NCBI RefSeq assembly: GCF_011045215.1
Contig: NZ_CP049201.1
Length of the DNA stretch: 64,000 nucleotides
DNA from: Escherichia coli
GTDB taxonomy: Bacteria; Pseudomonadota; Gammaproteobacteria; Enterobacterales; Enterobacteriaceae
Reading direction: 5' to 3' (one strand)
Shown: positions 18,310-47,117 of the stretch, piece after piece
Layout: every line of letters begins with the position of its first letter
How positions within the stretch are numbered: the stretch's first letter is position 1
Program-made: the position numbers and the translations under genes
The notes under the pieces: generated by a model
What the model was told of the DNA's origin: nothing
Databases searched by the model: none
The model's input: the letters and a program-made list of their open reading frames with translations, nothing else

Positions 18310-20748
18310 ATGGCTATCAAAAAAACCGAACTCTATTCTTCCCTGTGGGCAAGCTGCGACGAACTGCGTGGCGGGATGGACGCCAGCCAGTACAAAGACT
18401 ATGTACTGACCCTGCTGTTTATGAAGTACGTTTCCGATAAGTATAAAGGCGATCCTTACGGGATGATCGTGATACCCAAAGGAGCCAGCTTTGACGATAT
18501 GGTTGCGCTGAAAAATGACAAAGAGATCGGCGACAAAATCAACAAAATCATCCACAAGCTGGCGGAAGAGAACGGCCTGAAGGGCGTCATCGACGAAGCC
18601 GACTTTAACGACGAAGATAAGCTCGGCAAAGGCAAGGAAATGATTGACCGCCTGAGCAAGCTTGTCGGTATCTTTGAAGGGTTAAATCTCTCCAGCAACC
18701 GGGCCGAAGGCGACGATCTGCTGGGCGATGCCTATGAATATCTGATGCGTCACTTCGCAACCGAATCCGGTAAGAGTAAAGGGCAGTTTTACACTCCAGC
18801 GGAGGTGTCACGTATTCTGGCGAAGGTGATTGGTATTACTCCCGATACTCCGCAAGATGCAACGGTTTATGACCCAACCTGTGGCTCTGGTTCGCTGCTG
18901 TTGAAAGTGAATGATGAAGCCCGGCGCGGACTGTCGATTTTCGGCCAGGAGATGGATAACGCTACCAGTGCGCTGGCGCGGATGAACATGATTCTGCATA
19001 ACAATGCCACCGCGAAAATCTGGCAGGGCAATACGCTGAGCGATCCGCAGTGGAAAGAGGCGAACGGCAAACTGAAAGCCTTCGATTTTGCCGTGGCGAA
19101 CCCGCCTTTTTCCAATAAAAACTGGACCAACGGGCTGACGCCGAAAAAAGATCCGTTTGAACGCTTCGGCTGGGGTATTCCGCCGGAAAAAAACGGCGAT
19201 TATGCTTTTTTGTTGCATATCATTAAAAGCCTGAAAAGTACCGGCAAAGGCGCGGTGATCCTGCCCCACGGCGTACTGTTTCGCGGTAACGCCGAAGCGA
19301 ATATCCGTGAAAATCTAATCAAGCAGGGCTATATCAAAGGCGTTATTGGTTTGCCAGCCAACCTGTTTTACGGCACCGGCATCCCGGCGTGCATCATTGT
19401 GATTGATAAAGAGCACGCCCACAGCCGCAAAGGCATTTTTATGATCGACGCCAGCCGGGGCTTTATCAAAGATGGCAACAAGAACCGCCTGCGTAGCCGA
19501 GATATTCACCGCATTGTGGACGTGTTCAACCATCAGCGAACGGTACCTGGCTACAGCCGGATGGTGCCCTCCAGCGAGATCGCCGGAAATGATTACAACC
19601 TGAATATTCCTCGCTATATCGAGAGCGGCGAGCCGGAAGATTTACACGATCTGACCGCGCACTTACAGGGCGGTATTCCGGCACGCGATGTGGATGCTTT
19701 GCAAGATTACTGGCGGGTATTCCCTGCCCTGCGCAACGTGCTGTTTGCTGACGACCGTCCCGGTTACTGTCGGGCGCAGGTGAACGCGCAACAGGTGAAA
19801 CCGACCATTCTGGCGCATCAGGAGTTTAAGGATTTTGCCACCCGCAGCCTGCTACCGTTTAAAGCGTGGGTGAAAGAGGCAAGTCTGGAAGAGATTCGCA
19901 AAGGTGATAAACCCAAAGCGCTAATCCACGATATCAGCGAAATGCTATTGGCGCAGTACGCCAACAGTGAGTTGCTGAACAAATACAGCGTGTACCAGAT
20001 CCTGATGGATTACTGGACTGATGTCATGCAAGACGATGTGTATGCGATTATGCAGGATGGCTGGCAAGCCGCCGCGCAAATCCGCGAGCTTCAGCCGGTG
20101 AAAGGCAAAGATGGCAAAAACATCTGGAAAGAAACGCACGATTTCGAGTTTACCAAACGGCGCTACAAGGCCGATGTGCTGCCCCGTTCGCTGGTGGAAA
20201 TTCGCTGTTTCCCGGAACTGCTGGATGCGCTGAACCGCGCGCAGGAGCGCAGTGAAGAAGCCAGTCGTCAGCTAGTGGAATTCATCGAGGAGCAGGCAGG
20301 TGAAGAGGATCTGCTGGCCGAGGCGAAGAACGATAAAGATAAGGTGACGCAAAAGCTGGTGAATGCCCGTCTAGCACAGTTAAAGAAAACCACTGCCGGC
20401 CCAGATGAGCTGGCAGTGCTGAACCGCTGCCTGGCGCTAATTAAGGCCGAAGCCAGTGCGAAAAAAGCGCTGAAAGCCGCACAAGAAGCGCTGGATCGGG
20501 CGGTGTTTAAACATTATCCCACGCTGGATGAAGCAGCGATTAAAACGCTGGTAGTGCAGGATAAGTGGCTGGCAACGTTGCAGGCAGGGATCAAGGCGGA
20601 GATTGAGCGTATTACCCAGCAACTGGCGTCGCGCGTAAAGGAGCTGGAAGAGCGTTATGCTGAACCGTTGCTAGCGCTTGAAGCCTCCGTTGAGGCGTTG
20701 AGCGAGAAAGTGGCCGGGCATTTGCGGGCGATGGGGCTGGAGTGGTGA
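18310..20748 (+). CDS. hsdM: Type I restriction-modification methyltransferase subunit HsdM (long form, 812 aa)
   Basis: AdoMet motif DPTCGSGSLL and catalytic NPPF; long coiled-coil C-terminal extension; stop overlaps hsdS start. Confidence 0.9.
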   Translation: MAIKKTELYSSLWASCDELRGGMDASQYKDYVLTLLFMKYVSDKYKGDPYGMIVIPKGASFDDMVALKNDKEIGDKINKIIHKLAEENGLKGVIDEADFNDEDKLGKGKEMIDRLSKLVGIFEGLNLSSNRAEGDDLLGDAYEYLMRHFATESGKSKGQFYTPAEVSRILAKVIGITPDTPQDATVYDPTCGSGSLLLKVNDEARRGLSIFGQEMDNATSALARMNMILHNNATAKIWQGNTLSDPQWKEANGKLKAFDFAVANPPFSNKNWTNGLTPKKDPFERFGWGIPPEKNGDYAFLLHIIKSLKSTGKGAVILPHGVLFRGNAEANIRENLIKQGYIKGVIGLPANLFYGTGIPACIIVIDKEHAHSRKGIFMIDASRGFIKDGNKNRLRSRDIHRIVDVFNHQRTVPGYSRMVPSSEIAGNDYNLNIPRYIESGEPEDLHDLTAHLQGGIPARDVDALQDYWRVFPALRNVLFADDRPGYCRAQVNAQQVKPTILAHQEFKDFATRSLLPFKAWVKEASLEEIRKGDKPKALIHDISEMLLAQYANSELLNKYSVYQILMDYWTDVMQDDVYAIMQDGWQAAAQIRELQPVKGKDGKNIWKETHDFEFTKRRYKADVLPRSLVEIRCFPELLDALNRAQERSEEASRQLVEFIEEQAGEEDLLAEAKNDKDKVTQKLVNARLAQLKKTTAGPDELAVLNRCLALIKAEASAKKALKAAQEALDRAVFKHYPTLDEAAIKTLVVQDKWLATLQAGIKAEIERITQQLASRVKELEERYAEPLLALEASVEALSEKVAGHLRAMGLEW

Positions 20749-22088
20749 TGGTGGATTTAATGGTGAATGAGCAACGGTCGAGTACGGCGGGGAAAGATGT
20801 GCCTGCGGGGTATAAACTGACTGAGGTGGGCGTGATTCCTGAGGATTGGGATTGCGTACCATTTGGTAATCTGTTTAAAACAAACACAAAGAAAAAAAAA
20901 GTCAGCGATTATGAGCTAGTTTCATTTATTGGGATGCAGGATGTTAGTGAAGATGCACAATTAAAAAATAATACTCAACTTCCTTTTAAAGAAGTTAAAA
21001 GTGGTTTTACTTACTTTGAAAAAGGGGATGTTTTATTAGCTAAAATAACCCCTTGTTTTGAAAATGGAAAAGGATGTCATACCGCTGATTTACCTACTAA
21101 TGTAGGTTTTGGGAGTACGGAATTTCATGTATTAAGGGAAAATGAAGACTCCGATTCTCGCTTCATCTATTTTTGGACAACTGATAAAAAATTCAGAGCA
21201 TCACTGGAATCTGAAATGGTGGGAAGTGCGGGACACCGTCGTGTGCCGCTAGTTGCTATAGAAAAATATTTGATTCCATGTCCCCCAAATTTGCAAGAGC
21301 AAAGTGCTATTGCTGATTCATTATCTGATATTAATAATTTTATTCTAGCTCTAGAAAAGCTTATCGTTAAAAAACAAGCCATTAAAACCGCTACTATGCA
21401 GCAACTACTGACGGGTAAAACCCGTTTGCCACAGTTTGCGTTACGCAAAGATGGCTCTGCTAAGGGATATAAAAAGAGCGAGTTGGGGGCGATTCCTGAA
21501 GATTGGGTAGTCACAAGCATTGGACAATTTACTGACTGCTGTGCTGGTGGAACTCCGAGTACTAAAATTTCAGCATATTGGGGAGGAACTCATCCTTGGA
21601 TGAGTTCCGGCGAATTACACTTAAAACAAGTGTATGCTGTAGCCGATTATATAACCGACGAAGGGCTTGTTAACTCCAGTACAAAGTATGTGCCTAAAAA
21701 TTCTGTATTAGTCGGATTGGCAGGACAAGGAAAGACTCGAGGGACTGTAGCAATTAATCGCATTGAATTATGTACTAATCAGTCTATTGCTGCGATTTTC
21801 CCCAGCAAACATCATTCCACAGAATTCCTGTTCTATAACCTCGACAGTCGTTATGAGGAACTGAGAAGTTTATCTACTGGTGATGGGGGGCGTGGTGGGT
21901 TGAATCTTACTATTATCAGGAAATTACATCTTGCATTTCCGCCAAAAGAAGAACAAGCCGCCATCGCCGCCATCCTCTCCGATATGGACAAGGAAATCCA
22001 GATCCTGCAACAGCGTCTGGACAAAACCCGCCAGCTTAAGCAAGGGATGATGCAGGAACTGTTAACCGGGAAAATCCGCTTAATATAG
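20748..22088 (+). CDS. hsdS: Type I R-M specificity subunit HsdS
   Basis: Two target-recognition-domain architecture with conserved central and C-terminal repeats (LLTGKTRLP / LLTGKIRL); ATG overlaps hsdM TGA (ATGA). Confidence 0.85.
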   Translation: MVDLMVNEQRSSTAGKDVPAGYKLTEVGVIPEDWDCVPFGNLFKTNTKKKKVSDYELVSFIGMQDVSEDAQLKNNTQLPFKEVKSGFTYFEKGDVLLAKITPCFENGKGCHTADLPTNVGFGSTEFHVLRENEDSDSRFIYFWTTDKKFRASLESEMVGSAGHRRVPLVAIEKYLIPCPPNLQEQSAIADSLSDINNFILALEKLIVKKQAIKTATMQQLLTGKTRLPQFALRKDGSAKGYKKSELGAIPEDWVVTSIGQFTDCCAGGTPSTKISAYWGGTHPWMSSGELHLKQVYAVADYITDEGLVNSSTKYVPKNSVLVGLAGQGKTRGTVAINRIELCTNQSIAAIFPSKHHSTEFLFYNLDSRYEELRSLSTGDGGRGGLNLTIIRKLHLAFPPKEEQAAIAAILSDMDKEIQILQQRLDKTRQLKQGMMQELLTGKIRLI

Positions 22089-22100
22089 AAGGGAAAGCAC

Positions 22101-22757
22101 ATGGCTTATGATTACAGCGCCAGCCTCAACCCGCAAAAAGCTCTGATCTGGCGTATCGTCCATCGGGACAATATCCCGTGGATTCTGGATAACGGGCTGC
22201 ACTGCGGCAACAGTCTGGTGCAGGCGGAAAACTGGATCAATATCGGCAACCCGGAGCTGATCGGCAAGCGTGCCGGGCATCCGGTACCTGTCGGAACGGG
22301 CGGGACACTGCATGACTATGTGCCGTTTTATTTTACCCCCTTCTCGCCAATGCTGATGAACATCCACAGCGGGCGCGGCGGCATTAAGCAACGCCCCAAT
22401 GAGGAGATCGTTATTCTGGTCAGCAACTTGCGGAACGTGGCAGCACACGACGTGCCCTTCGTGTTTACCGACAGCCATGCTTACTATAACTGGACCAACT
22501 ACTACACCAGTCTGAATAGTCTGGACCAGATCGACTGGCCCATTTTGCAGGCACGGGACTTTCGCCGCGATCCAGACGATCCGGCTAAATTTGAACGCTA
22601 TCAGGCAGAGGCGCTAATCTGGCAACACTGCCCGATCTCTCTGCTGGATGGGATAATTTGTTACAGCGAAGAGGTCAGGTTACAATTAGAGCAATGGCTG
22701 TTTCAGCGTAATCTAACAATGTCCGTTCACACACGGGCTGGATGGTACTTCTCATGA
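22101..22757 (+). CDS. darT: DarT-like DNA ADP-ribosyltransferase toxin (DUF4433)
   Basis: 218-aa ORF immediately followed by a macrodomain gene with overlapping stop/start; family call from recalled DUF4433 features. Confidence 0.7.
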
Positions 22758-23821
22758 TCACATATACACAAGGCAATTTACTGGACGCACCGGTGGAAGC
22801 TCTGGTGAATACGGTTAATACCGTCGGTGTCATGGGGAAAGGCATCGCGTTGATGTTTAAAGAGCGCTTCCCCGAAAATATGAAAGTCTATGCCCTCGCT
22901 TGCAAACAAAAGCAGGTGATCACCGGCAAAATGTTCATTACCGAAACCGGGGAACTGATGGGACCGCGCTGGATTGTTAATTTTCCGACCAAACAGCACT
23001 GGCGCGCTGATTCCCGCATGGAGTGGATTGAAGATGGCTTGCAGGACTTACGCCGCTTTTTGATTGAAGAGAACGTGCAGTCCATCGCCATTCCACCACT
23101 GGGCGCAGGCAACGGTGGTTTGAACTGGCCGGACGTTCGGGCGCAGATTGAATCTGCCCTTGGCGACCTTCAGGACGTTGATATCCTGATTTACCAACCG
23201 ACTGAAAAATACCAGAACGTTGCCAAAAGCACTGGCGTAAAAAAGCTCACTCCCGCCAGAGCCGCCATCGCTGAACTGGTGCGTCGCTACTGGGTATTGG
23301 GGATGGAGTGCAGCCTACTGGAAATCCAGAAACTGGCCTGGCTGTTACAACGCGCCATTGAGCAGCATCAACAGGACGATATCCTCAAACTGCGGTTTGA
23401 AGCTCACTATTATGGCCCCTATGCGCCCAATCTGAACCATCTGCTTAATGCGCTGGACGGCACCTATCTAAAAGCCGAGAAACGCATCCCGGACAGCCAA
23501 CCGCTGGATGTGATCTGGTTTAACGATCAAAAAAAAGAACACGTTAATGCGTATCTGAACAACGAAGCCAGAGAGTGGCTACCTGCGCTGGAGCAGGTCA
23601 GCCAGTTAATTGACGGCTTTGAATCGCCGTTTGGTCTGGAGTTGCTGGCAACCGTAGACTGGTTGCTGAGCCGTGGCGAATGTCAACCAACGCTGGATTC
23701 CGTTAAGGAAGGACTGCACCAGTGGCCTGCGGGCGAACGCTGGGCCAGCCGTAAGTTGAGGCTGTTTGATAATAATAATCTGCAATTTGCCATTAACCGC
23801 GTAATGGAGTTCCATTGCTGA
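22754..23821 (+). CDS. darG: DarG-like macrodomain antitoxin
   Basis: N-terminal macrodomain signature ([36 protein letters not shown]) plus C-terminal extension; ATG overlaps darT TGA; alternative in-frame ATG at 22742. Confidence 0.75.
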
Positions 23822-23839
23822 GGGTTTAAGGAGCGCCTT

Positions 23840-26800
23840 TTGAGTACCGTGGGCCAGCGCGAACGCGCCACACAGCAGCGTCTGATTCAGTTTTTTGTTG
23901 AAGATTTAGGATACCGCCATCTGAGTCACCGCACCGGGTACACCGGGAACAGCAACATCGACACTAATATACTGAGCGCGTGGCTAAAACGGCGCGGCGT
24001 TAATGATACGTTGATCACCCGGGCGTTGCGGCAACTGGATTCCGCCGCCGCCCTGGGCGAAGGCAAAAAACTCTATTACGCCAATAAAGAGGTCTATCGC
24101 CTGCTGCGTTACGGCGTGAAAGACAAAGAAGGTGCAGGCGAGCAGAACCAAACCGTGTGGCTGATTGACTGGGCCAACCCACAAGCCAATGATTTCGCCA
24201 TCGCCGATGAGGTGACGGTCAAAGGCGAGTACTGCAAGCGCCCGGATCTGGTGCTGTACGTTAACGGCATTGCGCTGGGCGTGATTGAACTTAAGCGTTC
24301 GTCAGTGCACGTCAGCGAAGGTATCCGGCAGAATCTCGATAATCAAAAGAAAACCTTTATCCGCGATTTCTTCACCACTATGCAGTTAGTGATGGCAGGC
24401 AACGATACGCAGGGCCTGCGCTACGGCACCATCGAAACCCCGGAAAAATACTATCTGGAGTGGAAAGAAGATAATCCAGGCGACTATACACATAAACTCG
24501 ACTTTCATTTAAGTCGTCTGTGTAGCAAATCCAGGCTGTTGGATATCGTCCATAATTACATTGTCTTTGATGTCGGGGTGAAAAAACTCTGCCGCCATAA
24601 TCAGTTCTTCGGCGTCGAGGCGGCTAAGCAACATATTGCCCGTCGTGAAGGCGGTATTATCTGGCACACACAGGGATCGGGTAAAAGCCTGACGATGGTC
24701 TGGCTGGCGAAGTGGATCCGTGAAAATGTGCCAAACTCCCGCGTGTTGATTGTGACTGACCGCACCGAACTGGATGAACAGATCGAAAGCGTGTTTATGG
24801 GCGTGAATGAAGATATTTATCGCACCTCCAGCGGCAACGATCTTATCGCAACGCTCAATCATCCTAACCCGTGGCTTATTTGCTCGCTGGTGCATAAATT
24901 TGGTTGTCGCAGCGAAGCTGAAGACAATGCGGCTACCGACGCCTTTATCACCGAATTACAGCAGTCCCTGACGAAAACATTCCGCGCCAAAGGCGATCTG
25001 TTTGTTTTTGTGGACGAGTGCCACCGCACACAATCCGGCAAGCTGCATAACGCCATGACTGCCATTCTGCCGGACGCCCTGTTTATCGGTTTTACCGGCA
25101 CACCGCTGATGAAGAAAGATAAGAAGAAGTCGGTTGAGGTGTTCGGCCCTTATATCCATACCTATAAATTTGATGAAGCGGTGGCCGACGGTGTGGTGCT
25201 GGATCTGCGCTACGAGGCGCGCGATATTGACCAGTATCTGACATCAGAGAAAAAGGTCGATGACTGGTTTGAAGCCAAGACTCGCGGTTTGTCGAATTTA
25301 GCCAGGACCCAGCTTAAGCAAAAGTGGGGATCAATGCAGAAGCTGCTCTCCAGCAAGTCGCGGCTGGAGCAGATCGTTAACGACATTTTGCTGGATATGG
25401 ATACCCGTCCACGCCTGATGGACGGGCGCGGCAACGCCATGCTGGTATGCAGCAGTATCTATCAAGCCTGCAAGGTTTACGAGATGTTCAGCCAGACCGA
25501 GCTGGCAGGAAAAGTAGCGATTGTGACCAGCTATCGCCCCGATGCCGCCAGCATCAAAGGCGAAGAAACGGGCGAAGGGTTAACGGAGAAACTCTCTAAA
25601 CACGCCACCTATCGTAAAATGTTGGCTGACTATTTTGAACAAAGTGAAGAGAAGGCCGCCGCACGCATTACCGAGTTCGAGCGGGAAGTGAAACAACGTT
25701 TTATTGAAGAGCCGGGGCAAATGCGCCTGCTTATCGTGGTGGACAAGCTGTTGACTGGCTTTGACGCGCCGTCCGCCACCTATCTCTACATTGATAAAAC
25801 CATGACCGACCATACGCTGTTTCAGGCGATTTGTCGGGTGAACCGGCTGGACGGTGAGGATAAAGAGTATGGCTATATTATCGATTATAAAGATCTGTTC
25901 CGTTCGCTGGATAAAGCGATTACCGATTACACCACGGGCGCGTTTGATGATTACGATCGGGACGATGTGGCCGGGTTGCTGAAAGACAGGCTGGAGCAGG
26001 CGCAACTGGATCTCGACAGCGCGCTGGAGATGGTTCGCAGCTTATGTGAGCCCGTCAAAACCCCGCGCAGCCTGCAGGACTATCAGCACTATTTTTGCGG
26101 TAAATCAGGAGAGAATCAGACTTCGTTAAACGAAAAAGAGGCGCTGCGCCTGACATTTTACCAGTGCGTCGCCCGTCTGCTACGCGCTTATGCCAGCATC
26201 GCCAATGAAATGCCGGAAGCAGGCTACACTGCCGAAGAGGTAGAGAGCATTCGCGCCGAAGTCGCTGAATTCGAAAAACTGCGCTATGAGATTAAGCTGA
26301 CCAGCGGCGATCTTCTGGATATGAAGCGCTTTGAACCCGCTATGCGTCATTTACTGGATATGTATGTTCGCGCCGATGGTAGCGAAGTGCTGATGGATTT
26401 TGAAGAGTTAAGTCTGATTGAACTGATTGTCGAGAAAGGCTTGGCGGCGACCGTCGCCCTGCCGGATGATATCCGTAATAATCAGGATGCGATGGCGGAA
26501 ACCATCGAAAACAACGTGCGCAAAACCATCGTGGATGAAAACCCGGTTAACCCAAAATACTATGGACGCATGTCGCAGCTGCTGGATGAACTGATTACCC
26601 TTCGCCGACAAAATGCGCTCAATTATCAGCAGTATCTGGAACGTATCCGCGATTTGTGTAAACAGGTCATCCGCCCGGAGCAAACCGCCGGAGCGTGCTA
26701 CCCTGCCACCATGGATACACAAGCAAAGCGCGCCTTCTATGACAACTTCGGCCACGACGAGGTACTGGCGACCCGCATAGATACGACAATTCGCTATACC

Positions 26801-26935
26801 AAAAGGGCAGAGTGGATTGGCGATCGTTTTAAAGAACGGGAAATTGCCAACGCATTACGTGAAGAGACCGCCAGCTATAATATTGATATTGATGAGGTGA
26901 TAGCGCTTGCCCGTCAGCAGAAGGAATATCACTGA
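23840..26935 (+). CDS. hsdR: Type I restriction endonuclease subunit HsdR (1031 aa)
   Basis: SF2 helicase motifs (HTQGSGKSLTM Walker A, VFVDECHR DEAH-box); TTG start 7 nt after AAGGAG. Confidence 0.9.
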   Translation: MSTVGQRERATQQRLIQFFVEDLGYRHLSHRTGYTGNSNIDTNILSAWLKRRGVNDTLITRALRQLDSAAALGEGKKLYYANKEVYRLLRYGVKDKEGAGEQNQTVWLIDWANPQANDFAIADEVTVKGEYCKRPDLVLYVNGIALGVIELKRSSVHVSEGIRQNLDNQKKTFIRDFFTTMQLVMAGNDTQGLRYGTIETPEKYYLEWKEDNPGDYTHKLDFHLSRLCSKSRLLDIVHNYIVFDVGVKKLCRHNQFFGVEAAKQHIARREGGIIWHTQGSGKSLTMVWLAKWIRENVPNSRVLIVTDRTELDEQIESVFMGVNEDIYRTSSGNDLIATLNHPNPWLICSLVHKFGCRSEAEDNAATDAFITELQQSLTKTFRAKGDLFVFVDECHRTQSGKLHNAMTAILPDALFIGFTGTPLMKKDKKKSVEVFGPYIHTYKFDEAVADGVVLDLRYEARDIDQYLTSEKKVDDWFEAKTRGLSNLARTQLKQKWGSMQKLLSSKSRLEQIVNDILLDMDTRPRLMDGRGNAMLVCSSIYQACKVYEMFSQTELAGKVAIVTSYRPDAASIKGEETGEGLTEKLSKHATYRKMLADYFEQSEEKAAARITEFEREVKQRFIEEPGQMRLLIVVDKLLTGFDAPSATYLYIDKTMTDHTLFQAICRVNRLDGEDKEYGYIIDYKDLFRSLDKAITDYTTGAFDDYDRDDVAGLLKDRLEQAQLDLDSALEMVRSLCEPVKTPRSLQDYQHYFCGKSGENQTSLNEKEALRLTFYQCVARLLRAYASIANEMPEAGYTAEEVESIRAEVAEFEKLRYEIKLTSGDLLDMKRFEPAMRHLLDMYVRADGSEVLMDFEELSLIELIVEKGLAATVALPDDIRNNQDAMAETIENNVRKTIVDENPVNPKYYGRMSQLLDELITLRRQNALNYQQYLERIRDLCKQVIRPEQTAGACYPATMDTQAKRAFYDNFGHDEVLATRIDTTIRYTKRAEWIGDRFKEREIANALREETASYNIDIDEVIALARQQKEYH

Positions 26936-27651
26936 TGCCAATCATGCAAATAGGCTCGTTACACTTGCTGGTCAACCGTAAGGCGATTAAGAATCTGCAT
27001 ATCAGCGTGCTGCCGCCTGATGGCAAAGTCCGCGTTTCAGCGCCGGAACATATGACGGAGACGGCGATTCGTATGGCGGTTGCTTCACGCTTTCGCTGGA
27101 TCAGAAAACAGCAGCAGGATTTCGCCAGACAGCCTCGTCAATCAGAGAGGGAAATGGTCAGCGGAGAGTGCCACTATCTTTGGGGCCGAAGATATCGCCT
27201 ACTTGTGATTGAGCGTCACGGGCGTCACGAAGTAAAAGTTGCGGGAAATAATAAGCTCCAGCTTTATGTTCAACCGGGAACCCGTGATGAAAATAAGGCA
27301 TTGGCGTTAAGTGAATTTTATCGACATGAACTAAAACAGCAGGTGGCTAAGCTTCTACCTGAATGGCAAGACCGAATCGGTGTTCCCCTAACATTCTGGG
27401 GCATCAAAAAGATGAAAACCTTTTGGGGCACCTGTAACACTACAACAAAACGAATCTGGCTCAATCTGGAGCTAATTAAGAAGCCGCCGGAGTGTCTGGA
27501 GTATATTCTGGTGCATGAACTGGTTCATCTTCTGGAACGTCACCATAATGCTCGCTTCCGGTTGCATATGGATCGGTTTATTCCTGACTGGCGTGAGCGT
27601 CGGGATTTGTTAAATAATATGCCGTTAGCGTTTGAGGCATGGGAGTATTGA
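26935..27651 (+). CDS. M48/DUF45 (YgjP-like) zinc metallopeptidase-fold protein
   Basis: HEXXH motif (HELVHLLERHH); ATG overlaps hsdR stop. Confidence 0.75.
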   Translation: MPIMQIGSLHLLVNRKAIKNLHISVLPPDGKVRVSAPEHMTETAIRMAVASRFRWIRKQQQDFARQPRQSEREMVSGECHYLWGRRYRLLVIERHGRHEVKVAGNNKLQLYVQPGTRDENKALALSEFYRHELKQQVAKLLPEWQDRIGVPLTFWGIKKMKTFWGTCNTTTKRIWLNLELIKKPPECLEYILVHELVHLLERHHNARFRLHMDRFIPDWRERRDLLNNMPLAFEAWEY

Positions 27652-27907
27652 TTGAGCCTGTAACTGTTTTTTGTCCATAAATTAACCTTCATTTGATGCT
27701 GGATAGAACATATCAAAATCAGACAATTACACAAATCTATGTACAGGCTCAACTCCTGCCATGGAACGTAGTACTCACCAATAAGTAAGCATCAATACGG
27801 CGCTCCGTTAACGCTTACTAGCATGGTTATCTCCTTAAAAAATTGAGGCGACAACTATGCTGACACAGGGGGTTACTCACCGATCTCCTTCACGGTAATA
27901 CGCAGTT

Positions 27908-28024
27908 CTTCAGAACCCGCCTCCGATACCAGCCTGGCGGTCGCCCCGGCGCAAGCAAAATAAATCGACCATTGTCAGACTGCGATCGTTCGGATGCCCC
28001 GCCACCGACGCATCAGTATGAGTT
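27908..28024. repeat. Direct repeat copy A (~117 bp), partner at 36875..37003
   Basis: cttcagaacccgcctccgataccagcctggcg...gcaagcaaaataaatc.accattgtcagactgcgatc shared with copy B at ~88% identity by eye. Confidence 0.7.
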
Positions 28025-28258
28025 AACCGAAACGATACAAAATTGCCTGAGAATCATTACGCTGGCTGATGGAAGGCACACCAAAAGCCTCTGCACAGAA
28101 CGATGTTCGGCAACAACAGAAACATGATTGCGTTCATGGCAATAGTCATTCGTACCGTTACAGGCGGTATTGATTTATTACAGACAAGCGGTACATATAT
28201 GTACCGCTTGGTTAAGTAAAAAAACAGATATGAACGCTATTATGTTCATTCTACTTTA

Positions 28259-28816
28259 TTAAAAGCGATAACCCACGCCAATATTGAATCCATTAATGGA
28301 ATAATTATCGCCAAGTTTTGCTCTGGTTCCTTCATATCCGGCATTAATTGTAATATTACTTGTCGGATTGATCATTACCCCGGCAGCATAAGCAAAAGAT
28401 GTGGATTTTTTCGAAATATTTTCTCTGGCGAAATAACCATCAACGTTTGTCCATGCTGTTTTACCATCAGCTTTAACATGCGCCACGCCGCCAGCCGCAT
28501 ACAGTGACATATAATCGTTAATGCGCCATACGGGGCCGGTCAGTAAGGAATAATATTTTGCATCAACCTGGTTTTTAATTGAATCGCCATATGAATGATA
28601 TTCCTGATTACCATCCCCTTTCATCCAGGAGAAACTGCCCATAATACTGACCGGGGAGTCCCATTCATACCTGTACTGCAGGTTTACCCCTCTAATATTC
28701 TTGAAGTTCTGAATTTTACTCTGTGCATAACCGACAGAAAACGAATGGTTGTCAGCCAGCACGGAACCGCTTGCCACTGATAATATGATGGCTGAAAGAA
28801 CTGACAGTTTTTTCAT
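28259..28816 (-). CDS. Ail/Lom/OmpX-family outer-membrane beta-barrel protein
   Basis: Signal peptide MKKLSVLSAIILSVASGSVLA, alternating amphipathic strands, C-terminal ...NIGVGYRF aromatic terminus. Confidence 0.8.
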   Translation of the reverse strand: MKKLSVLSAIILSVASGSVLADNHSFSVGYAQSKIQNFKNIRGVNLQYRYEWDSPVSIMGSFSWMKGDGNQEYHSYGDSIKNQVDAKYYSLLTGPVWRINDYMSLYAAGGVAHVKADGKTAWTNVDGYFARENISKKSTSFAYAAGVMINPTSNITINAGYEGTRAKLGDNYSINGFNIGVGYRF

Positions 28817-29081
28817 TTTATTATCTCCATTGTTAATGAGAGTTATTTGATGAAATAATGATGCTAATATTTCTATCTGATGTCAATCACTCTGAGGGTG
28901 GTTGATACGTCAGAGGAACAACAGCTACATTAATATGCTATTTCAACCGGTTATCAGCATTAATTACAGCATACTTGTTCTGAATATCTCCGCATTCACG
29001 ATCAGCTTTACGACAGACAGTCATTTCTCTGTCAAAAGCATGTACCTCGTCGTAGCTGAGGTAGTTATTCTCAACAACATT

Positions 29082-29315
29082 TCAGAACCCCTTAACTTTC
29101 ATGATATGCAACAAACCAATACCCAAGCCTAAGATCCCCCCCCCATACACACTCATTTTTAACAGTCTAGAAAACTGAAAAACTTCAAATGATATTGGGG
29201 CATTCAAATAAAAATACATAAATATCTTCAGAAGAAGATAAAAAATCGAACCGACTATAAACAAACCAAATATGCATACAGTCATTAATAAGACAACAAT
29301 AAGAAGGTTCTTCAT
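29082..29315 (-). CDS. Orphan CdiI-like immunity protein (77 aa, two predicted TM helices)
   Basis: Small hydrophobic ORF overlapping the stop of the orphan cdiA-CT by 4 nt. Confidence 0.6.
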
Positions 29316-30343
29316 TTCCCAGCCTCCATTGCATCTTTCTTTTTCTGGATAATGGAGCTTCCAAACTCAGATGATAAACTACCACCCGCATTACCCACAG
29401 CACCAGGGATCTTACTCGGTACCATTTCTTTAGATAGACCTAACTGCCCTTTAACTTCAGTATATTTTAGTAGAGTCGGATCGAATTTAGGATTCCAGCC
29501 ACCGGTTATCCATTTACCGATTGTATTTGCAGCAGGCTTGACCACATAATTGCCAACCCCATATCCAAACCCGGCCCCCGCTCCATTTGTAATCGCCCCA
29601 GTAAGAGGATCATCTCCGTTTATGGCGTTGGTTAATGCTCCACCTGCCGCATTCCAGGCTATTGTCCCTTTCCAGCCCTGCCCCATGGTGATTACATTGA
29701 CCCATCCTGCAATGATTGCATTTTCAGGATCAACTGAACTATCTACCATGTAACCAATTCCTGCATTTGCACCTGTGCCAAGAGCCCACATGGCCTGAGC
29801 ACCGCCAGGTAAGAGAGCTACACTACCAGTGGCCAACGCTCCGGCATACGCTTTATTGACTGCTTCTCCTCGCTTACAGGCTTCACCGCCTGGGGCATCG
29901 TTACAGGAAAGTACATCTGCGCCATGCGTCTGAGCAGCTTTGCTCTGCTCGGACTCTGTGCCACCAACCAAGTTATTCTCAGCAATGTTCTTCCCAACAC
30001 CAGCCCCTGCAGCCGCGCCAGCCACATCGCCACTGGCAATGCCGCCAGCCATACCCGCTGACAGCGTTGCCAGCGTGCTTATCGTCTGCTTCTGCTCTTC
30101 ACTGAGGTCTGACTGTTTCACGCCCGGATACAGCATTCCGATCGCTCTGGCTGCCAGCTCTCCCGTTGCTGCGCCTGCTGCACCAGCAGCAACATTATTA
30201 CTCTGCATTGCCGCTACTGCACCGCCCAGAATGGCGTGAGCAATGGCCTTTACTGCCGGGTCTTTTTCTGTTGATTTCAGCAGGTATGCCAGTTCCGGAG
30301 CCGAAGCTCCCGCCAGTACTGCACCAACGTCACCACCTGCCAG
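29312..30343 (-). pseudogene. Orphan cdiA-CT fragment (pretoxin/VENN-like region plus glycine-rich C-terminal toxin domain), 5'-truncated
   Basis: Translation upstream of the annotated ATG continues as ...[53 protein letters not shown]..., homologous to the CdiA 37491..46565 pretoxin region ([13 protein letters not shown]...VENN); preceded by an in-frame stop at 30344. Confidence 0.75.
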
Positions 30344-31048: not shown

Positions 31049-32269
31049 ATGGAAAAGCATTACGTCGGTTCTGAAATTGGTCAATTGCGTAGTGTTATGC
31101 TGCACCGCCCAAATTTAAGTCTGAAACGTTTGACACCATCGAATTGTCAGGAACTGCTTTTCGATGATGTACTCTCGGTTGAACGGGCAGGTGAAGAGCA
31201 TGACATCTTCGCAAATACGCTGCGCGATCAGGGGGTGGAAGTCCTGCTGTTAACAGACCTCCTGACACAAACCCTTGATATTAAAGAAGCGAAAACCTGG
31301 CTACTGGAGACGCAAATTTCTGACTACCGCCTCGGACCTACCTTTGCGGGCGATGTGCGCAGCTGGCTGGCGGACATGCCGCACCGTGAACTGGCGCGAA
31401 GATTAAGCGGCGGATTAACTTACGGTGAAATTCCGGCTGCCATTAACAATATGGTGGTGGATACCCACACGTCTAATGACTTTATTATGAAGCCGCTACC
31501 GAATCATTTATTTACCCGCGATACCTCCTGCTGGATTTATAACGGTGTTTCTATTAACCCGATGGCCAAACCAGCCCGTCAACGTGAAACCAATAACCTC
31601 CGGGCAATATATCGCTGGCACCCGGCATTTGCCGACGGCGATTTTATTAAGTATTTCGGCGACGAAAATATTTATTACGACCACGCCACTTTGGAAGGTG
31701 GCGACGTATTAGTGATTGGTCGTGGGGCGGTATTGATCGGCATGTCTGAACGCACAACACCGCAGGGCGTGGAGTTCCTCGCCAACAGCCTGTTCAAACA
31801 TCGTCAGGCCGAGCGAGTGATCGCCGTTGAGCTGCCAAAACACCGCTCCTGTATGCACCTTGACACCGTCATGACCCACATCGACGTTGACACTTTCTCC
31901 GTTTACCCGGAAGTGGTGCGCAAAGACGCCCAGTGCTGGACGCTCACTTCGAACGGACGCGATGGCCTACAACGGACCCAGGAAACCGACCTGTTGCACG
32001 CCATCGAGAAAGCACTCGGTATTGACCAGGTACGCTTGATCACCACCGGCGGCGACGCCTTTGAAGCCGAACGTGAGCAGTGGAACGACGCCAATAACGT
32101 TCTGACCATCCGCCCCGGTGTGGTGATTGGTTACGAGCGCAACGTCTGGACTAACGAGAAATACGACAAAGCCGGCATCACCGTGCTGCCCATCCCGGGG
32201 GACGAATTGGGACGAGGCCGCGGCGGCGCACGCTGCATGAGCTGTCCGCTTGAACGCGACGGAATTTAA
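31049..32269 (+). CDS. arcA: Arginine deiminase
   Basis: 406-aa [31 protein letters not shown]... typical ADI N-terminus; RBS aaaggaataattATG. Confidence 0.9.
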
Positions 32270-32279
32270 AGGAGCCATC

Positions 32280-33191
32280 ATGGAACGAAAACCCACTTTG
32301 GTTGTGGCGTTGGGCGGCAACGCATTATTGAAGCGCGGCGAACCACTGGAAGCAGAAATCCAGCGCCAGAACATTGAGTTGGCCGCCCGTACCATCGCCG
32401 GGCTCACGGTGAATTGGCGCGTGGTGTTGGTTCACGGCAACGGTCCACAGATCGGGCTGCTGGCGCTGCAGAACAGCGCCTACGACAAAGTAACCCCTTA
32501 TCCACTGGACGTTCTTGGCGCCGAAAGCCAGGGGATGATCGGCTACATGCTCCAGCAGGCGCTGAAAAACAGCCTGCCACAGCGTGAGGTGAGCGTCCTG
32601 CTTACTCAGGTGGAAGTGGACGCTACTGACCCGGCGTTCAGCAACCCGACCAAATATATCGGACCGGTGTACAACGAAGACCTGGCAAAAACACTGGCAG
32701 CAGAAAAAGGTTGGGGGTTTAAGGCCGACGGCAGCTACTTCCGTCGCGTGGTGCCATCTCCACAGCCGAAACGCATTGTCGAGAGCGATGCTATTACGGC
32801 ACTGATCCAGCGCGACCATCTTGTTATCTGCAACGGCGGCGGTGGTGTGCCAGTTGTGGAAAAGGCTAACGGCTATCGCGGAATTGAGGCGGTGATCGAC
32901 AAAGACCTCTCTGCTGCCCTGCTGGCATACCAGATAGGGGCCGACGCACTACTGATTCTCACTGATGCCGACGCGGTTTACCTCGATTGGGGCAAACCGA
33001 CCCAGCGTCCGCTAGCGCAGGTGACGCCAGAACTGCTCAGAGGCATGCAGTTTGACACCGGATCGATGGGGCCGAAAGTGGCCGCCTGCTGCAAGTTTGT
33101 TGAAGCTTGCAACGGTATTGCCGGGATCGGCGCTCTGGTCGACGGGGCTGAGATTTTGGCGGGCAAGAAAGGCACATTGATTCGTAACTGA
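32280..33191 (+). CDS. arcC: Carbamate kinase
   Basis: MERKPTLVVALGGNALLKRGE... carbamate kinase N-terminal motif; six-frame ORF extends 10 codons upstream. Confidence 0.9.
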   Translation: MERKPTLVVALGGNALLKRGEPLEAEIQRQNIELAARTIAGLTVNWRVVLVHGNGPQIGLLALQNSAYDKVTPYPLDVLGAESQGMIGYMLQQALKNSLPQREVSVLLTQVEVDATDPAFSNPTKYIGPVYNEDLAKTLAAEKGWGFKADGSYFRRVVPSPQPKRIVESDAITALIQRDHLVICNGGGGVPVVEKANGYRGIEAVIDKDLSAALLAYQIGADALLILTDADAVYLDWGKPTQRPLAQVTPELLRGMQFDTGSMGPKVAACCKFVEACNGIAGIGALVDGAEILAGKKGTLIRN

Positions 33192-33275
33192 ATCCCCCTT
33201 CACCTAACCCTCTCCTCAAAGGGGAGATGGCAGAGTGAGGGCATCAGACAGTTAAAATTTAAAAAGGATTTCCTA

Positions 33276-34280
33276 ATGACCATCAATTTGAAAAAACGCA
33301 ACTTCCTTAAACTGCTGGACTACACCCCGGCAGAGATCCAGTACCTGATCGATCTCGCGATCAAACTGAAAGCGGCCAAAAAAGCCGGACGAGAAAAACA
33401 GACCTTGGTTGGCAAAAACATTGCCCTGATTTTTGAAAAAACCTCCACCCGTACCCGCTGTGCTTTCGAAGTGGCTGCGTTCGACCAGGGGGCGCAGGTG
33501 ACCTACCTCGGCCCAGGCGGATCGCAAATCGGCCATAAAGAGTCAATGAAAGACACCGCCCGTGTGCTGGGCCGTATGTATGACGGCATCGAATACCGTG
33601 GTTACGGTCAGGCCATCGTTGAGGAGTTGGGCAAATACGCGGGCGTACCGGTGTGGAACGGTCTGACCGACGAATTTCACCCAACCCAAATCCTCGCAGA
33701 TTTGATGACCATGCTGGAACATTCCCCGGGCAAAAAACTGTCGGAACTGAGCTTTGCCTACCTTGGCGACGCACGCAACAACATGGGTAACTCCCTGATG
33801 GTGGGGGCTGCCAAAATGGGGATGGATATCCGTCTTGTAGCCCCAAAATCCTTCTGGCCGGATGTGGTGCTTGTTGAACAGTGCCGTTCCATCGCGGAAG
33901 AGACGGGCGCACGTATCACCCTGACCGATGACGTGGAAGAAGGCGTGTGGGGAACGGATTTCCTCTACACCGATGTTTGGGTCTCCATGGGTGAACCGAA
34001 AGAGGCGTGGACCGAACGCGTCAGCCTGATGAAGCCTTATCAAATCAACGCTGACGTGATGAACGCCACCGGCAACCCGAACGTCAAGTTCATGCACTGC
34101 CTGCCAGCCTTCCACAATGAGCACACCAAAGTGGGCCGAGAAATTGAGATGGCATACGGCCTGAAGGGACTGGAGGTGACGGAAGAGGTCTTCGAATCCC
34201 CTAACTCTATCGTCTTTGATGAAGCAGAAAACCGCATGCATACCATTAAAGCGGTCATGGTGGCGACACTCGGCGACTAA
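33276..34280 (+). CDS. arcB: Ornithine carbamoyltransferase (catabolic)
   Basis: STRTR carbamoyl-phosphate binding motif and HCLP motif. Confidence 0.9.
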
Positions 34281-34327
34281 TCACCACCCGGTGCGTCGTA
34301 GGGTGCACCGGGTCTCAGGAGAACATC

Positions 34328-35731
34328 ATGGGTAAGTTCAAATTTCCCTCCGCATATACCATTCTCTTTTTTCTGATTGCCATCGTTGCCGTCCTGACGT
34401 GGATCATTCCAGCCGGGCAGTATCACATGGCAATGAACGAAGCTCTCGGCAAGGAGGTTCCTGTTGCCGGCACCTATGCACACGTAGAGGCCAATCCGCA
34501 GGGACTGATTTCAGTGCTGATGGCCCCAATTGCCGGGTTGTATGATCCAGACTCCGGTCAGGCTAGGGCGATAGACGTTGCGCTGTTTATTCTGATCATC
34601 GGAGGATTCCTCGGGATCGTCACCAAAACCGGGGCCATTGACGCCGGAATCGAGCGCGTCACCACCCGACTACGTGGTCGCGAAGAGTGGATGATCCCGA
34701 TCCTTATGGCGCTGTTTGCTGCTGGCGGTACAATTTACGGCATGGCCGAAGAATCCCTGCCGTTTTATACCCTGCTGGTGCCGGTGATGTTGGCAGCACG
34801 CTTCGACCCTGTGGTAGCCGCCTCCACCGTGCTGCTCGGCGCCGGGATCGGCACGCTCGGTTCCACCATTAACCCTTTCGCGACGGTGATCGCCGCCAAT
34901 GCAGCCGGGATCCCCTTCACCAACGGTATCACCTTGCGTGTGGTGGTGCTTGTCATCGGCTGGATAATCTGCGTGACATGGGTGATGCGCTATGCCCGGA
35001 AAGTTCGCAAGGAGCCGTCTCTCTCCATTATTGCGGATAAACAAGAGGAGAACCTCGCCCACTTCCTCGGCAATAAAAGCGAACAGGCTCTGGAGTTCAC
35101 CCCGGTACGCAAAATTATTCTGGTGATTTTCGCCCTTACCTTCGCGGTCATGATCTACGGCGTGGCGGTGCTGGGTTGGTGGATGGCGGAGATCTCAACG
35201 GTATTTCTGGCCAGCGCAATTATCATCGGCCTGATCGCCCGCATGAGCGAAGAGGAACTGACCTCTACCTTTATCAACGGCGCGCGAGATTTGCTGGGCG
35301 TTGCACTGATTATCGGTATCGCGCGCGGTATCGTAGTGATCATGGATAAAGGTATGATTACCCATACTATTTTGCACTACGCCGAGGGAATGGTTACTGG
35401 ATTATCGACAGTAGCATTCATCAACGTGATGTATTGGCTGGAAGTGGTGCTGTCGTTTCTTGTGCCTTCTTCGTCCGGTCTGGCCGTTCTGACGATGCCG
35501 ATCATGGCACCTCTTGCCGACTTCGCTAACGTCAACCGCGACCTGGTAGTTACGGCTTACCAGTCTGCGTCCGGTATCGTTAACCTGATCACTCCCACCT
35601 CTGCCGTTGTGATGGGCGGACTGGCTATCGCCCACGTGCCTTACGTGCGATATCTGAAATGGGTTGCGCCGCTGCTTGGGATATTAACAGTGGTAATTAT
35701 GGTGGCATTAAGTCTGGGGGCATTGTTGTAA
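34328..35731 (+). CDS. YfcC-family membrane transporter (putative arginine/ornithine antiporter of the ADI operon)
   Basis: 467-aa polytopic membrane protein, co-directional and immediately downstream of arcB. Confidence 0.7.
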   Translation: MGKFKFPSAYTILFFLIAIVAVLTWIIPAGQYHMAMNEALGKEVPVAGTYAHVEANPQGLISVLMAPIAGLYDPDSGQARAIDVALFILIIGGFLGIVTKTGAIDAGIERVTTRLRGREEWMIPILMALFAAGGTIYGMAEESLPFYTLLVPVMLAARFDPVVAASTVLLGAGIGTLGSTINPFATVIAANAAGIPFTNGITLRVVVLVIGWIICVTWVMRYARKVRKEPSLSIIADKQEENLAHFLGNKSEQALEFTPVRKIILVIFALTFAVMIYGVAVLGWWMAEISTVFLASAIIIGLIARMSEEELTSTFINGARDLLGVALIIGIARGIVVIMDKGMITHTILHYAEGMVTGLSTVAFINVMYWLEVVLSFLVPSSSGLAVLTMPIMAPLADFANVNRDLVVTAYQSASGIVNLITPTSAVVMGGLAIAHVPYVRYLKWVAPLLGILTVVIMVALSLGALL

Positions 35732-35811
35732 TTTGCCGGATGGCGCTGCCCCTATCCGGTCTACGGAATGGTGTGGTGTCACCGGTTATTTCGAGAACTG
35801 AATATAGGATT

Positions 35812-36291
35812 ATGATGGATTACGAAGATTTCTCTCCCAAAGAGCAACTACAGCTAACGGTCTGCCAACGTCTGATTGCAGAAAAGAGCTATTTTTCCCA
35901 AGAGGAGCTCCGCCGCGACTTACAGGAGCGTGGTTTTGAGACAATCAGCCAGTCCACCGTTTCTCGTCTGCTCAAGTTGTTAGGTGTCATAAAAATTCGA
36001 AATGCCAAAGGGCTAAAAGTCTATTCGCAGAATCCACAGTTGCGTCCGGCTCCTGATGCCGCGCGCACTGTGTCCGAAATGGTGGTGAGCGTTGAGCACA
36101 ATAGAGAATTTATCCTTATCCATACCGTTGCTGGATATGGCCGCGCAGTGGCACGTGTCCTTGATTATCACCAGTTGCCAGAAATTTTAGGCGTGGTGGC
36201 CGGAAGCAGTATCGTCTGGGTCGCTCCTCGGATGGTGAAGCGTGTCGCTCTGGTGCATAAGCAAATTAATTATTTACTAAGAACGTATTAA
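35812..36291 (+). CDS. argR: ArgR-family arginine-responsive repressor
   Basis: 159 aa from MMDYEDFSPKEQLQLTVCQRLIAEKSYFSQEELRRDLQERGFETISQSTVSRLLK... winged-helix N-terminus plus C-terminal oligomerisation domain. Confidence 0.8.
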   Translation: MMDYEDFSPKEQLQLTVCQRLIAEKSYFSQEELRRDLQERGFETISQSTVSRLLKLLGVIKIRNAKGLKVYSQNPQLRPAPDAARTVSEMVVSVEHNREFILIHTVAGYGRAVARVLDYHQLPEILGVVAGSSIVWVAPRMVKRVALVHKQINYLLRTY

Positions 36292-36688: not shown

Positions 36689-36874
36689 ATATTACTCTGC
36701 TGTCGGGAGTTGAACGCCTGACGACAGGAAATGAGCCAGGCCAGCCACCACGCGGGCTGACAGCGAATCAGAACCTGAGTCAGCCCGGAGCCATTCCCGG
36801 GGCTGCACTTCATCACCTGCCACCAGTACCCGTGTCAGTACTTCGCGACCTGACGCAATTATCCGACTCAGTCC

Positions 36875-37003: not shown

Positions 37004-37064
37004 GCCGGAATATTACTCAATATGAGTTCGCCGGAATATTACGCCTAGCTGGGGGTTTTCTGTG

Positions 37065-37095: not shown

Positions 37096-37110
37096 TTGCG
37101 AGCTTTCCCA

Positions 37111-37485: not shown

Positions 37486-37490
37486 TTGCT

Positions 37491-46565: not shown

Positions 46566-46580
46566 TCTGATAAACCTGAC

Positions 46581-47108: not shown

Positions 47109-47117
47109 GAAACTTTC

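Follow-up and report, generated by a model that had tools for sequence, protein, structure and literature searches.

The open reading frame (ORF) at positions 28259-28816 in a 64,000-nucleotide stretch of Escherichia coli DNA (NCBI RefSeq assembly GCF_011045215.1, contig NZ_CP049201.1; the whole stretch is called the window below) encodes a 185-amino-acid member of the Ail/Lom family of outer-membrane proteins. We consider it somewhat better than even, at a probability of about 0.55, that this is a functional gene for a small PagC/Rck-like outer-membrane protein, a surface barrel that would serve in complement resistance and/or adhesion. Its membership in the Ail/Lom (OmpX) family is close to certain. 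The protein is already catalogued under the correct family name, as RefSeq WP_000736772.1 'Ail/Lom family outer membrane beta-barrel protein' (the annotation in genomes with identical DNA), and is an ordinary member of a known family. No paper on WP_000736772 was found in the literature searched.

A preliminary description of this DNA had assigned the ORF to the Ail/Lom family of eight-stranded β-barrels, and both the boundaries and the assignment proved to be correct. The ORF listing gives one single frame of 185 codons, on the minus strand. The Pfam model PF06316 (Ail_Lom), a search that had been proposed as a check, matches the protein over its full length (residues 5-185, profile positions 7-199 of 199) with 82.8 bits (E = 3.5e-23; gathering score 23), and the generic OMP_b-brl model of Pfam matches it likewise. 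The best sequence matches in the PDB are 3qra (Yersinia pestis Ail, E = 1.8e-23), 9wso (phage Lom, E = 5.4e-19) and OmpX (E = 1.5e-16), so that Ail, Lom and OmpX are all found, far beyond chance.

The predicted fold agrees with the sequence matches. The AlphaFold2 (AF2) model, built with the homologue alignment as input, has a mean predicted local distance difference test score (pLDDT) of 88.3 and a predicted template modelling score of 0.77, and consists of a single N-terminal helix (residues 3-15), a low-pLDDT linker (15-21) and eight strands (23-35, 40-51, 56-75, 78-98, 103-123, 129-149, 155-167 and 171-184). When the model was compared with the PDB by Foldseek, Ail 3qra (E = 2.3e-15, template modelling score 0.81, target-normalised) and OmpX 1qj9 came out on top, followed by eight-stranded barrels of the OmpA type. 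Yersinia Ail (3qra) and E. coli OmpX (1qj8/1qj9) are the best matches of solved structure both by sequence and by fold; they share the GYRF end and the barrel core with the window protein, but their loops are shorter, with 148-157 residues in the mature proteins compared with 164 here. By the Ail/OmpX topology, the long hairpins of strands 3-4 and 5-6 would be extracellular loops 2 and 3. The N-terminus reads as a putative Sec signal peptide, MKKLSVLSAIILSVASGSVLA, followed by DNHS and, by eye, has no lipobox cysteine; A21 and D22 are nearly invariant in the alignment of homologues. The C-terminal GVGYRF is the usual barrel-insertion β-signal with its aromatic end, and G182, Y183 and F185 are invariant in 36 homologues.

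Within the family, sequence comparison places the protein on the PagC/Rck-like branch. The references were Rck from pSLT (PSLT009), lambda Lom, K-12 OmpX and the Salmonella PagC clusters P0121 and P0122, both located through a PagC query sequence; P0121 (1,537 members) is 99% identical to that query, and P0122 carries the NCBI name 'virulence membrane protein PagC'. The window protein is 45-46% identical to Rck, 46% to Salmonella PagC, 39% to Ail, 36% to OmpX and 31% to lambda Lom, and reaches 59-61% with an E. coli cluster of 191-residue proteins (P0086) and 60-68% with proteins of Leclercia, Lelliottia, Cedecea and Atlantibacter, some of which are named 'putative virulence related protein PagC' by their sources. 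In a neighbour-joining tree it groups with the proteins of these four genera and with that of O-island 122 (OI-122; P0086 type), in a clade whose sister group comprises PagC and Rck. Among NCBIfam models, the Rck equivalog (NF011777) scores best, at 153.1 bits with a cut-off of 258, and the OmpX equivalog (NF006917) gives 101.7 bits with a cut-off of 176; as both cut-offs are missed, the protein is neither Rck nor OmpX. In fact, the cut-offs, the tree and the functional residues together rule out identity as Rck, PagC or OmpX.

Salmonella PagC is also a 185-residue precursor of an eight-stranded barrel, and its strand 1 and loop 1 are nearly identical to those of the window protein, GYAQSK(I/V)Q(N/D)FKNIRGVN; however, it belongs to the sister clade, its genomic context differs, and its pH-response motif (His60/His62/His102) is absent here. 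Rck likewise has 185 residues, and BLASTP gives 46% identity, but it is encoded in an operon of the pefI-srgC type, which the window gene is not.

The nearest named relative in E. coli is the 191-residue type of OI-122, which is called pagC (z4321) in the literature (PMC8565820). By its sequence, the window gene is a divergent allele (59-61% amino-acid identity, 66% at the nucleotide level) of the E. coli 'pagC' of OI-122, of module III of the adhesion-and-autoaggregation locus (LAA) and of pathogenicity island PAI I-CL3. OI-122 Z4321, LAA ORF42 and the PagC-like protein of PAI I-CL3 (P0086/P0089) share family and tree branch with the window protein, and their genes, like the window gene, lie on tRNA-associated islands 3' of, and in the same direction as, class IV contact-dependent growth inhibition (CDI) genes, cdiB-cdiC-cdiA-cdiI (tpsB/tpsA). 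They nevertheless form a separate allele group: the window protein has 185 instead of 191 residues, with shorter loops 2 and 3, and the gene is followed by a 112-nucleotide repeat and an M48 peptidase gene rather than by a NERD/3'-5' exonuclease gene and remnants of a type VI secretion system. In O157:H7 FRIK944, the 191-residue 'pagC' is on the pheV island, beside espL2, nleB and nleE. The 5' poly-A tract of this FRIK944 gene (locus L008, 9540-9580), ATGAAAAAAACTCGTT, differs from that of the in-frame copy of O91 strain RM7190 (L092, 9640-9690), ATGAAAAAAAACGTT; the difference is a frameshift that brings a stop codon into the signal-peptide region, and the RefSeq coding sequence is called from a later start. 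This may represent slipped-strand variation or decay of a widely used 'virulence marker'.

Several observations bear on whether the window gene is functional. We compared it with other copies by counting synonymous and non-synonymous changes and taking the ratio of their rates (dN/dS). The copy of cattle strain C5 shows neither kind of change, so that dN/dS is not applicable, and that of pig strain UMNF18 has three synonymous and no non-synonymous changes (dN/dS 0). The diverged alleles (dS = 0.12-0.17) have 17 synonymous and one non-synonymous change in plasmid pRHB39-C22_3 (dN/dS 0.015), 19 and three in plasmid pUMNK88_Hly (0.040), and 14 and six in strain 08-00022 (0.11). The gene is thus under strong purifying selection, loops included, and a pseudogene reading is rejected on dN/dS. 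As expected for acquired DNA, its GC content is low (41.4%, compared with 49.2% for the window). That the gene is a decaying, unexpressed passenger with no current function is therefore very improbable. Such a passenger would fit the low GC, which is typical of H-NS-silenced foreign DNA, the insertion-sequence fragments that surround the gene in other strains and the frameshifted FRIK944 relative; however, the diverged alleles have few amino-acid changes for their 14-19 synonymous ones (0-6), none of the seven copies examined has a disrupted ORF, and the translation signals are conserved.

Expression signals are present on both sides of the gene. A Shine-Dalgarno sequence precedes the start codon, and farther upstream lies a σ70-like promoter match; such sites are no more frequent in the region than expected from shuffled sequence, and this one is therefore a candidate only. 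Past the stop codon are two hairpins, the first with an AT-rich stem and a run of seven U, the second with a perfect 11-bp stem, which probably form a terminator region; the fold has an energy of -26.8 kcal/mol (z = -5.35), and none of 200 shuffled sequences was equally stable. The 265-bp upstream region accompanies the gene in strains UMNF18 and C5. The plasmid copies share only 22 bp upstream of the ATG with the chromosomal ones and must therefore use a different promoter. A search of positions 27000-31200 against Rfam found no known RNA element, apart from a spurious OppA thermometer match within the coding sequence (18.7 bits, gathering score 290).

In the mechanism that we consider most probable, the precursor would be exported by the Sec system and cleaved after Ala21, and the β-barrel assembly machinery (BAM complex) would insert the barrel through its C-terminal GYRF signal, as in other family members. 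The barrel would then sit among lipopolysaccharide (LPS) molecules, with loops 2 and 3 (about residues 64-90 and 112-140) projecting from the cell surface, where they might bind host proteins; candidates are factor H, C4BP, vitronectin, and ligands of the extracellular matrix or the cell surface. For livestock-associated E. coli, the outcome would be partial protection from complement and/or added adherence, as for Ail, Rck and the PagC proteins of Salmonella and Photorhabdus. Binding of factor H and protection against complement are known for Salmonella PagC (PMC8262969). PagC and Ail2 of Photorhabdus make E. coli resistant to serum (PMC4198210), and loops 1 and 3 of Rck mediate serum resistance, with G118 and D43 being important (PMC8549739). 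LAA ORF42 and OI-122 pagC are listed as putative virulence factors, and a pagC mutant of C. rodentium is attenuated (PMC8565820, PMC5539235). The preliminary description had characterised the family as associated with serum resistance and adhesion/invasion or as phage-borne; the first part has its precedents in Ail, Rck and PagC, whereas the gene here is not phage-borne.

A number of points weigh against a role in host interaction. Identity to Rck and PagC drops to 29% and 33% in the surface-exposed parts, compared with 61% and 64% for the rest of the protein. Rck G118 and D43 align with V114 and N40 of the window protein, PagC His60, His62 and His102 align with S79, K81 and A121, and of the 58 alignment columns of the Rck invasion peptide (114-159), 16 match. 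Since the surface parts have diverged and the residues for Rck and PagC activity are not conserved, the ligand specificity is not transferable and no ligand can be named. A motif scan upstream of the gene found no PhoP box or other virulence-type regulatory signal: there is no PhoP box with up to two mismatches in 28817-29100, the 265-bp upstream region included, although this weak scan cannot exclude regulation. Across the window, 16 PhoP-box matches compare with 17 expected, and the one nearest to the gene (29247-29263) is at chance level. Outside E. coli, the nearest relatives are encoded on the chromosomes of genera that are largely environmental or associated with plants, such as Lelliottia, Leclercia and Enterobacter, which argues against a dedicated role in mammalian virulence. 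The strong and widespread linkage to CDI loci, set out below, suggests that selection may favour the gene for bacterial competition or envelope biology rather than for interaction with the host. The label 'virulence-associated', which the preliminary description had used, derives for this gene solely from the reputation of the family.

Envelope physiology of the kind described for Salmonella PagC and Yersinia Ail could also account for such a protein: contact between loops and LPS would alter curvature, vesicle formation and lipid homeostasis, and any effect on the host would be indirect. The placement on the PagC/Rck-like branch fits this explanation, as do 13 Lys/Arg residues in the predicted extracellular parts, since basic residues of the PagC loops contact LPS (PMC11322160). 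A study on Y. pestis also describes Ail as needed for outer-membrane lipid homeostasis (PMC8508112). However, the PagC histidine motif that is absent here is critical for vesicle production, and Rck and Ail have similar basic residues yet induce no vesicles (PMC11322160). Moreover, E. coli already has a housekeeping member of the family in OmpX. We therefore regard a purely envelope-related function as quite unlikely.

It is extremely improbable that the gene is a Lom-type moron left in a prophage remnant. The match to PHROG 108 'Lom outer membrane protein' (E = 4.7e-46) and the Lom genes found by tblastn in 399 phage records point in that direction, and lambda Lom does share its Pfam and PHROG families with the window protein. 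However, all phage matches are at most 37% identical (lambda Lom 31%), so that the PHROG match expresses family-level similarity only. There is also no prophage context: no tail-fibre or other phage structural gene lies nearby, and the surroundings consist of a type I restriction-modification system that includes DarTG, the gene for an M48 peptidase, CDI modules and an arginine deiminase (ADI) operon. Low identity and genomic context effectively refute a phage origin.

The distribution of the gene points to livestock. Among 5,426 complete E. coli genomes, 30 carry it at 95% identity or more, as 27 chromosomal and four plasmid copies. Twenty-seven of these genomes are from pigs (enterotoxigenic E. 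coli, ETEC, and O139 oedema-disease strains), two are from cattle, and one is listed as human / bagged lettuce. The OI-122/LAA type (about 66% nucleotide identity) occurs in 507 of the 5,426, and PLSDB holds 11 further plasmids with at least 97.8% protein identity, from pig, cattle and sheep sources. Three contexts recur. On the pheV island of pig ETEC, the gene stands beside an integrase gene and a broken phosphoethanolamine-transferase gene. Copies on IncI1 and IncI-gamma plasmids lie between a gene for phospholipase D or an inverse autotransporter and vapBC. In cattle strains C5 and 52F4 and in strain 08-00022, the gene comes immediately after orphan CDI toxin/immunity modules. The plasmid copies from pig, cattle and sheep E. 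coli (pUMNK88_Hly, locus L006 4332-9558; L002), which are 96% identical in nucleotides and 98-99.5% in amino acids, adjoin vapBC near a gene for an intimin/invasin-like inverse autotransporter.

A module of 1.24 kb, which runs from one repeat copy through the gene and its upstream region into the final 57 bp of an orphan cdiI, is 97.4% identical to DNA of the pheV island of pig strain UMNF18, and positions 27900-29075 are 98.5% identical to cattle strains C5 and 52F4. As the unit shared with UMNF18 includes the 3' end of the orphan cdiI, the pheV copy is probably derived from a CDI-flanking context. By these comparisons the gene is mobile between chromosomal islands and IncI plasmids. With respect to regulation, a 79%-identical homologue (L014, 1108-1944) lies directly past a gene for a PerC-family regulator, and LAA-type islands with the 191-residue allele carry PerC, IbrA and IbrB genes about 9-10 kb away (L092 313-582; L093 616-885). 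PerC-type regulators are possible controllers of these Ail/Lom genes.

The linkage of such genes to CDI loci extends well beyond E. coli. Among the first leads was an 86%-identical homologue about 6 kb past a 3,431-residue CdiA and its immunity gene. In a metagenome-assembled genome, a 67%-identical homologue lies directly past cdiB-cdiC-cdiA-cdiI and before LysR and short-chain dehydrogenase/reductase (SDR) genes; the CdiC proteins of that genome and of the window are 65% identical and have thus diverged to a similar degree as the barrel proteins. In Lelliottia amnigena, the Ail/Lom gene precedes the matching LysR-SDR pair without CDI, and this chromosomal site thus occurs both with and without a CDI locus. 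We then scanned 70 homologue loci, one genome per species, with the CdiA, CdiB and CdiC of the window. Sixty of these species-level loci have 5 kb or more of upstream sequence; in 24 of the 60, a CdiA-like gene lies within 10 kb, always on the same strand, and in 23 it is upstream. The naive chance of a co-directional neighbour within 10 kb in a genome of about 5 Mb is, as we roughly estimate, well under 1%; the linkage is real and far above this expectation. However, the loci are phylogenetically non-independent, and shared descent of gene blocks could explain much of these counts.

The CDI-linked genera include Enterobacter, Lelliottia, Leclercia, Silvania, Huaxiibacter and Dryocola as well as Tenebrionibacter, Pantoea, Tatumella, Enterobacillus and Mixta, and the linked genes are spread over six or more separate clades in the protein tree, and their flanking genes differ. 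The typical order is cdiB-cdiC-cdiA-cdiI, sometimes orphan modules, a gap of 27-300 bp, and the Ail/Lom gene. In Mixta tenebrionis BIT-26 (L079 8117-18108), a 202-residue Ail/Lom protein is encoded within the class IV operon itself, at 9983-10588, between cdiC (9406-9930), 52 bp away, and cdiA (from 10682), 93 bp away; cdiB is at 8117-9403, and all four genes are confirmed by Pfam. In the interval from cdiI to the Ail/Lom gene of Enterobacter wuhouensis, a search for sites resembling a terminator or a promoter found none, which is a weak test. In E. coli, cdiC is present in 197 of the 5,426 genomes. Seven of these loci, sampled regardless of the barrel gene, have an Ail/Lom gene downstream in three cases (RM7190, M19 and RM10410) and lack it in four (F7349, GPEC349-628, D10 and SC406). 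Along the minus strand of the window, the order is cdiB-cdiC-cdiA-cdiI, ADI operon, orphan C-terminal toxin fragment (CT) with immunity gene, and Ail/Lom gene; C5 and 52F4 have the same layout without the ADI operon. The window CDI locus runs in the direction of the Ail/Lom gene, upstream of it, is 95.9% identical to that of C5, and belongs to class IV because it has cdiC, a gene of the HlyC family (definition in PMC8510554).

These findings raise the question of whether the protein serves class IV CDI systems as a functional accessory instead of interacting with the host, which we think unlikely. It could mask or remodel the LPS-core receptor and so limit self-binding or attack by neighbours, drive the release of LPS-rich decoy vesicles, or hold cells together for toxin delivery. 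The receptor of class IV CdiA is indeed the LPS core (PMC8510554), and PagC loops contact LPS and drive vesicle formation (PMC11322160). The frequent co-directional CdiA-like neighbours, the gene inside the Mixta operon, the spread over several clades with different flanks, the position of both E. coli alleles 3' of class IV loci and the lack of a detected terminator or promoter in the E. wuhouensis interval all fit such a role. However, by our reading of PMC8510554, which mentions no Ail/PagC gene, the cloned cdiBCAI of STEC_O31 is active in K-12 as a four-gene locus; the Ail/Lom protein is therefore not required for killing. The gene also occurs without CDI at the LysR-SDR locus of L. amnigena and Leclercia adecarboxylata and alone on plasmids, more than half of the sampled E. 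coli cdiC loci lack it, and in the window about 8 kb (the ADI operon and the orphan module) separate it from cdiI, with a promoter-like site of its own. Much of the synteny could come from shared block descent or from hitch-hiking. What speaks for a functional link is the arrangement in Mixta, the strict co-orientation and the lack of a detected terminator in E. wuhouensis, but the link is a doubtful proposition. Equally doubtful is the broader idea that PagC-like barrels are a conserved, unrecognised companion of cdiB(C)AI across Enterobacterales, in some cases within the operon, and act in CDI biology, not in host virulence. Resistance to complement and/or adhesion remains our preferred function for the window protein.

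Part of this linkage has been recorded before. LAA module III, which is PAI I-CL3, carries the PagC-like ORF42 together with tpsA and tpsB (PMC5539235), and pagC, tpsA and tpsB are named in strain RM10410 (PMC10562709). In the literature searched, CdiA and PagC, Ail or Lom are only listed together as island genes, and neither a functional link nor a cross-genus pattern is proposed. The co-location of pagC and tps genes in E. coli is thus already on record, and the cross-genus CDI pattern is new within that literature. On the LAA-type and OI-122 islands (L092, L093, L095 and L008), a TssE pseudogene borders the 191-residue pagC-like gene at one end, and a NERD/3'-5' exonuclease gene with an ImpA fragment lies at the other. 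From this arrangement, the OI-122 'pagC' region may be what remains of the same CDI-flanking block after loss of the CDI genes.

The surroundings of the gene in the window (Table 1) bear out the description of it as cargo of an island, next to an orphan CDI cassette and an ADI operon in a repeat-bracketed segment. The serX gene (tRNA-Ser GGA), with ghrA on its left, and ycdU are separated by 735 bp in K-12, and about 59.5 kb of the window, with the Ail/Lom gene in it, is therefore island DNA. The integrase gene adjoins ycdU, far from the tRNA gene; no second copy of the serX 3' end, which would mark the far border, was found at up to three mismatches. The window flanks are 95-99.7% identical to many complete E. 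coli genomes. Two 112-nucleotide direct repeats, identical at 101 positions, bracket a segment of 8,966 bp that holds the Ail/Lom module, the orphan cdiA-CT of the PT-VENN type with its putative immunity ORF (which overlaps the stop of the toxin ORF by 4 nucleotides), and the ADI operon. In O157:H7 F7349 and in strain EC5654, there is one repeat copy, the segment is absent, and cdiI-cdiA comes straight after the M48 peptidase gene. The repeat of other strains continues into a longer conserved element of about 250-320 nucleotides near fragments annotated as transposase remnants.

Table 1. Positions of the gene, its signals and neighbouring features in the window.
Feature	Position	Strand	Basis
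Ail/Lom-family coding sequence, 185 residues, ATG start, stop included	28259..28816	minus	ORF list; Pfam, NCBIfam and PDB matches; AF2; Foldseek; dN/dS
Signal-peptide coding part, residues 1-21	28754..28816	minus	sequence by eye; AF2; homologue conservation
Shine-Dalgarno GGAGA, 7 nucleotides from ATG (28816-28814)	28824..28828	minus	read from sequence
Candidate σ70-like promoter, TTGACA-17 nucleotides-CATCAT, 10/12 matches	28858..28886	minus	consensus scan
Two hairpins past the stop, likely terminator region	28185..28256	minus	RNA fold
Mobile module, 1.24 kb	27900..29139	minus	strain comparison
Left 112-nucleotide direct repeat	27900..28011		repeat search, family D2
Right 112-nucleotide direct repeat	36866..36977		repeat search
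Putative orphan CDI immunity gene, 77 residues, hydrophobic	29082..29315	minus	position only; no Pfam match
Orphan cdiA C-terminal fragment, 298-residue ORF, PT-VENN pre-toxin domain	29312..30208	minus	Pfam PF04829, E = 1.3e-12
ADI operon: arcA, arcC, ornithine carbamoyltransferase (argF), DcuC/YfcC-type transporter, ArgR-like repressor (argR)	31049..36291	plus	Pfam
Class IV CDI locus: cdiB 47118-48857, cdiC 46581-47108, cdiA 37491-46565, cdiI 37111-37485	37111..48857	minus	ORFs; HlyC and CdiI_ImmP Pfam
hsd-darTG-M48 arrangement	18310..27651		
DarT-DarG pair	22101..23821		
serX	3428..3515		
Integrase gene	60731..61933		
ycdU	63011..63997		

Some of these neighbours deserve comment in their own right. 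The ADI operon together with the orphan VENN toxin fragment (29140-36860) is found in 341 of the 5,426 genomes, often beside VENN pre-toxin genes; a metabolic operon within a CDI orphan array is thus common, and an adjoining Ail/Lom gene is rare. On a metagenome contig (L013), a tryptophanase/permease pair occupies the place equivalent to the ADI operon. The body of the window cdiA with cdiC and cdiB (38241-49243) is 95.9% identical to strain C5, whereas the toxin tip with cdiI (37064-38260) matches EC5654 at 99.7% identity; that strain has no annotated cdiC, and the body of its cdiA and its cdiB gave no match to the window in the same comparison. The chimeric look of the window cdiA (37064-49243) is consistent with exchange of toxin/immunity modules by recombination. 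On the other side of the Ail/Lom gene, DarT and DarG are encoded within a type I restriction-modification operon (hsdM, hsdS, darT, darG, hsdR), which is followed by the gene for a YgjP-like M48 metallopeptidase; other strains of E. coli have this arrangement as well, at 98-99% identity.

The gene described here is one more uncharacterised surface protein of the Ail/PagC type in the accessory genome of livestock-associated E. coli. It is a candidate factor for serum resistance or adhesion and may be useful as an epidemiological marker for pig ETEC and oedema-disease E. coli (EDEC) and for cattle strains. The window gene, the 'pagC' of OI-122/LAA that serves as a marker of Shiga toxin-producing E. 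coli (STEC), and homologues in a dozen genera are found at the 3' end of CDI loci. If this linkage were functional, the protein would be a fifth component of class IV CDI, and 'pagC' as a virulence marker would be read differently; if such barrels were indeed companions of CDI systems, the markers known as 'pagC' on OI-122 and LAA would be left over from loci for bacterial competition. If the linkage reflects only shared descent, these E. coli island modules would still trace back to chromosomal loci of the Enterobacter, Lelliottia or Leclercia type.

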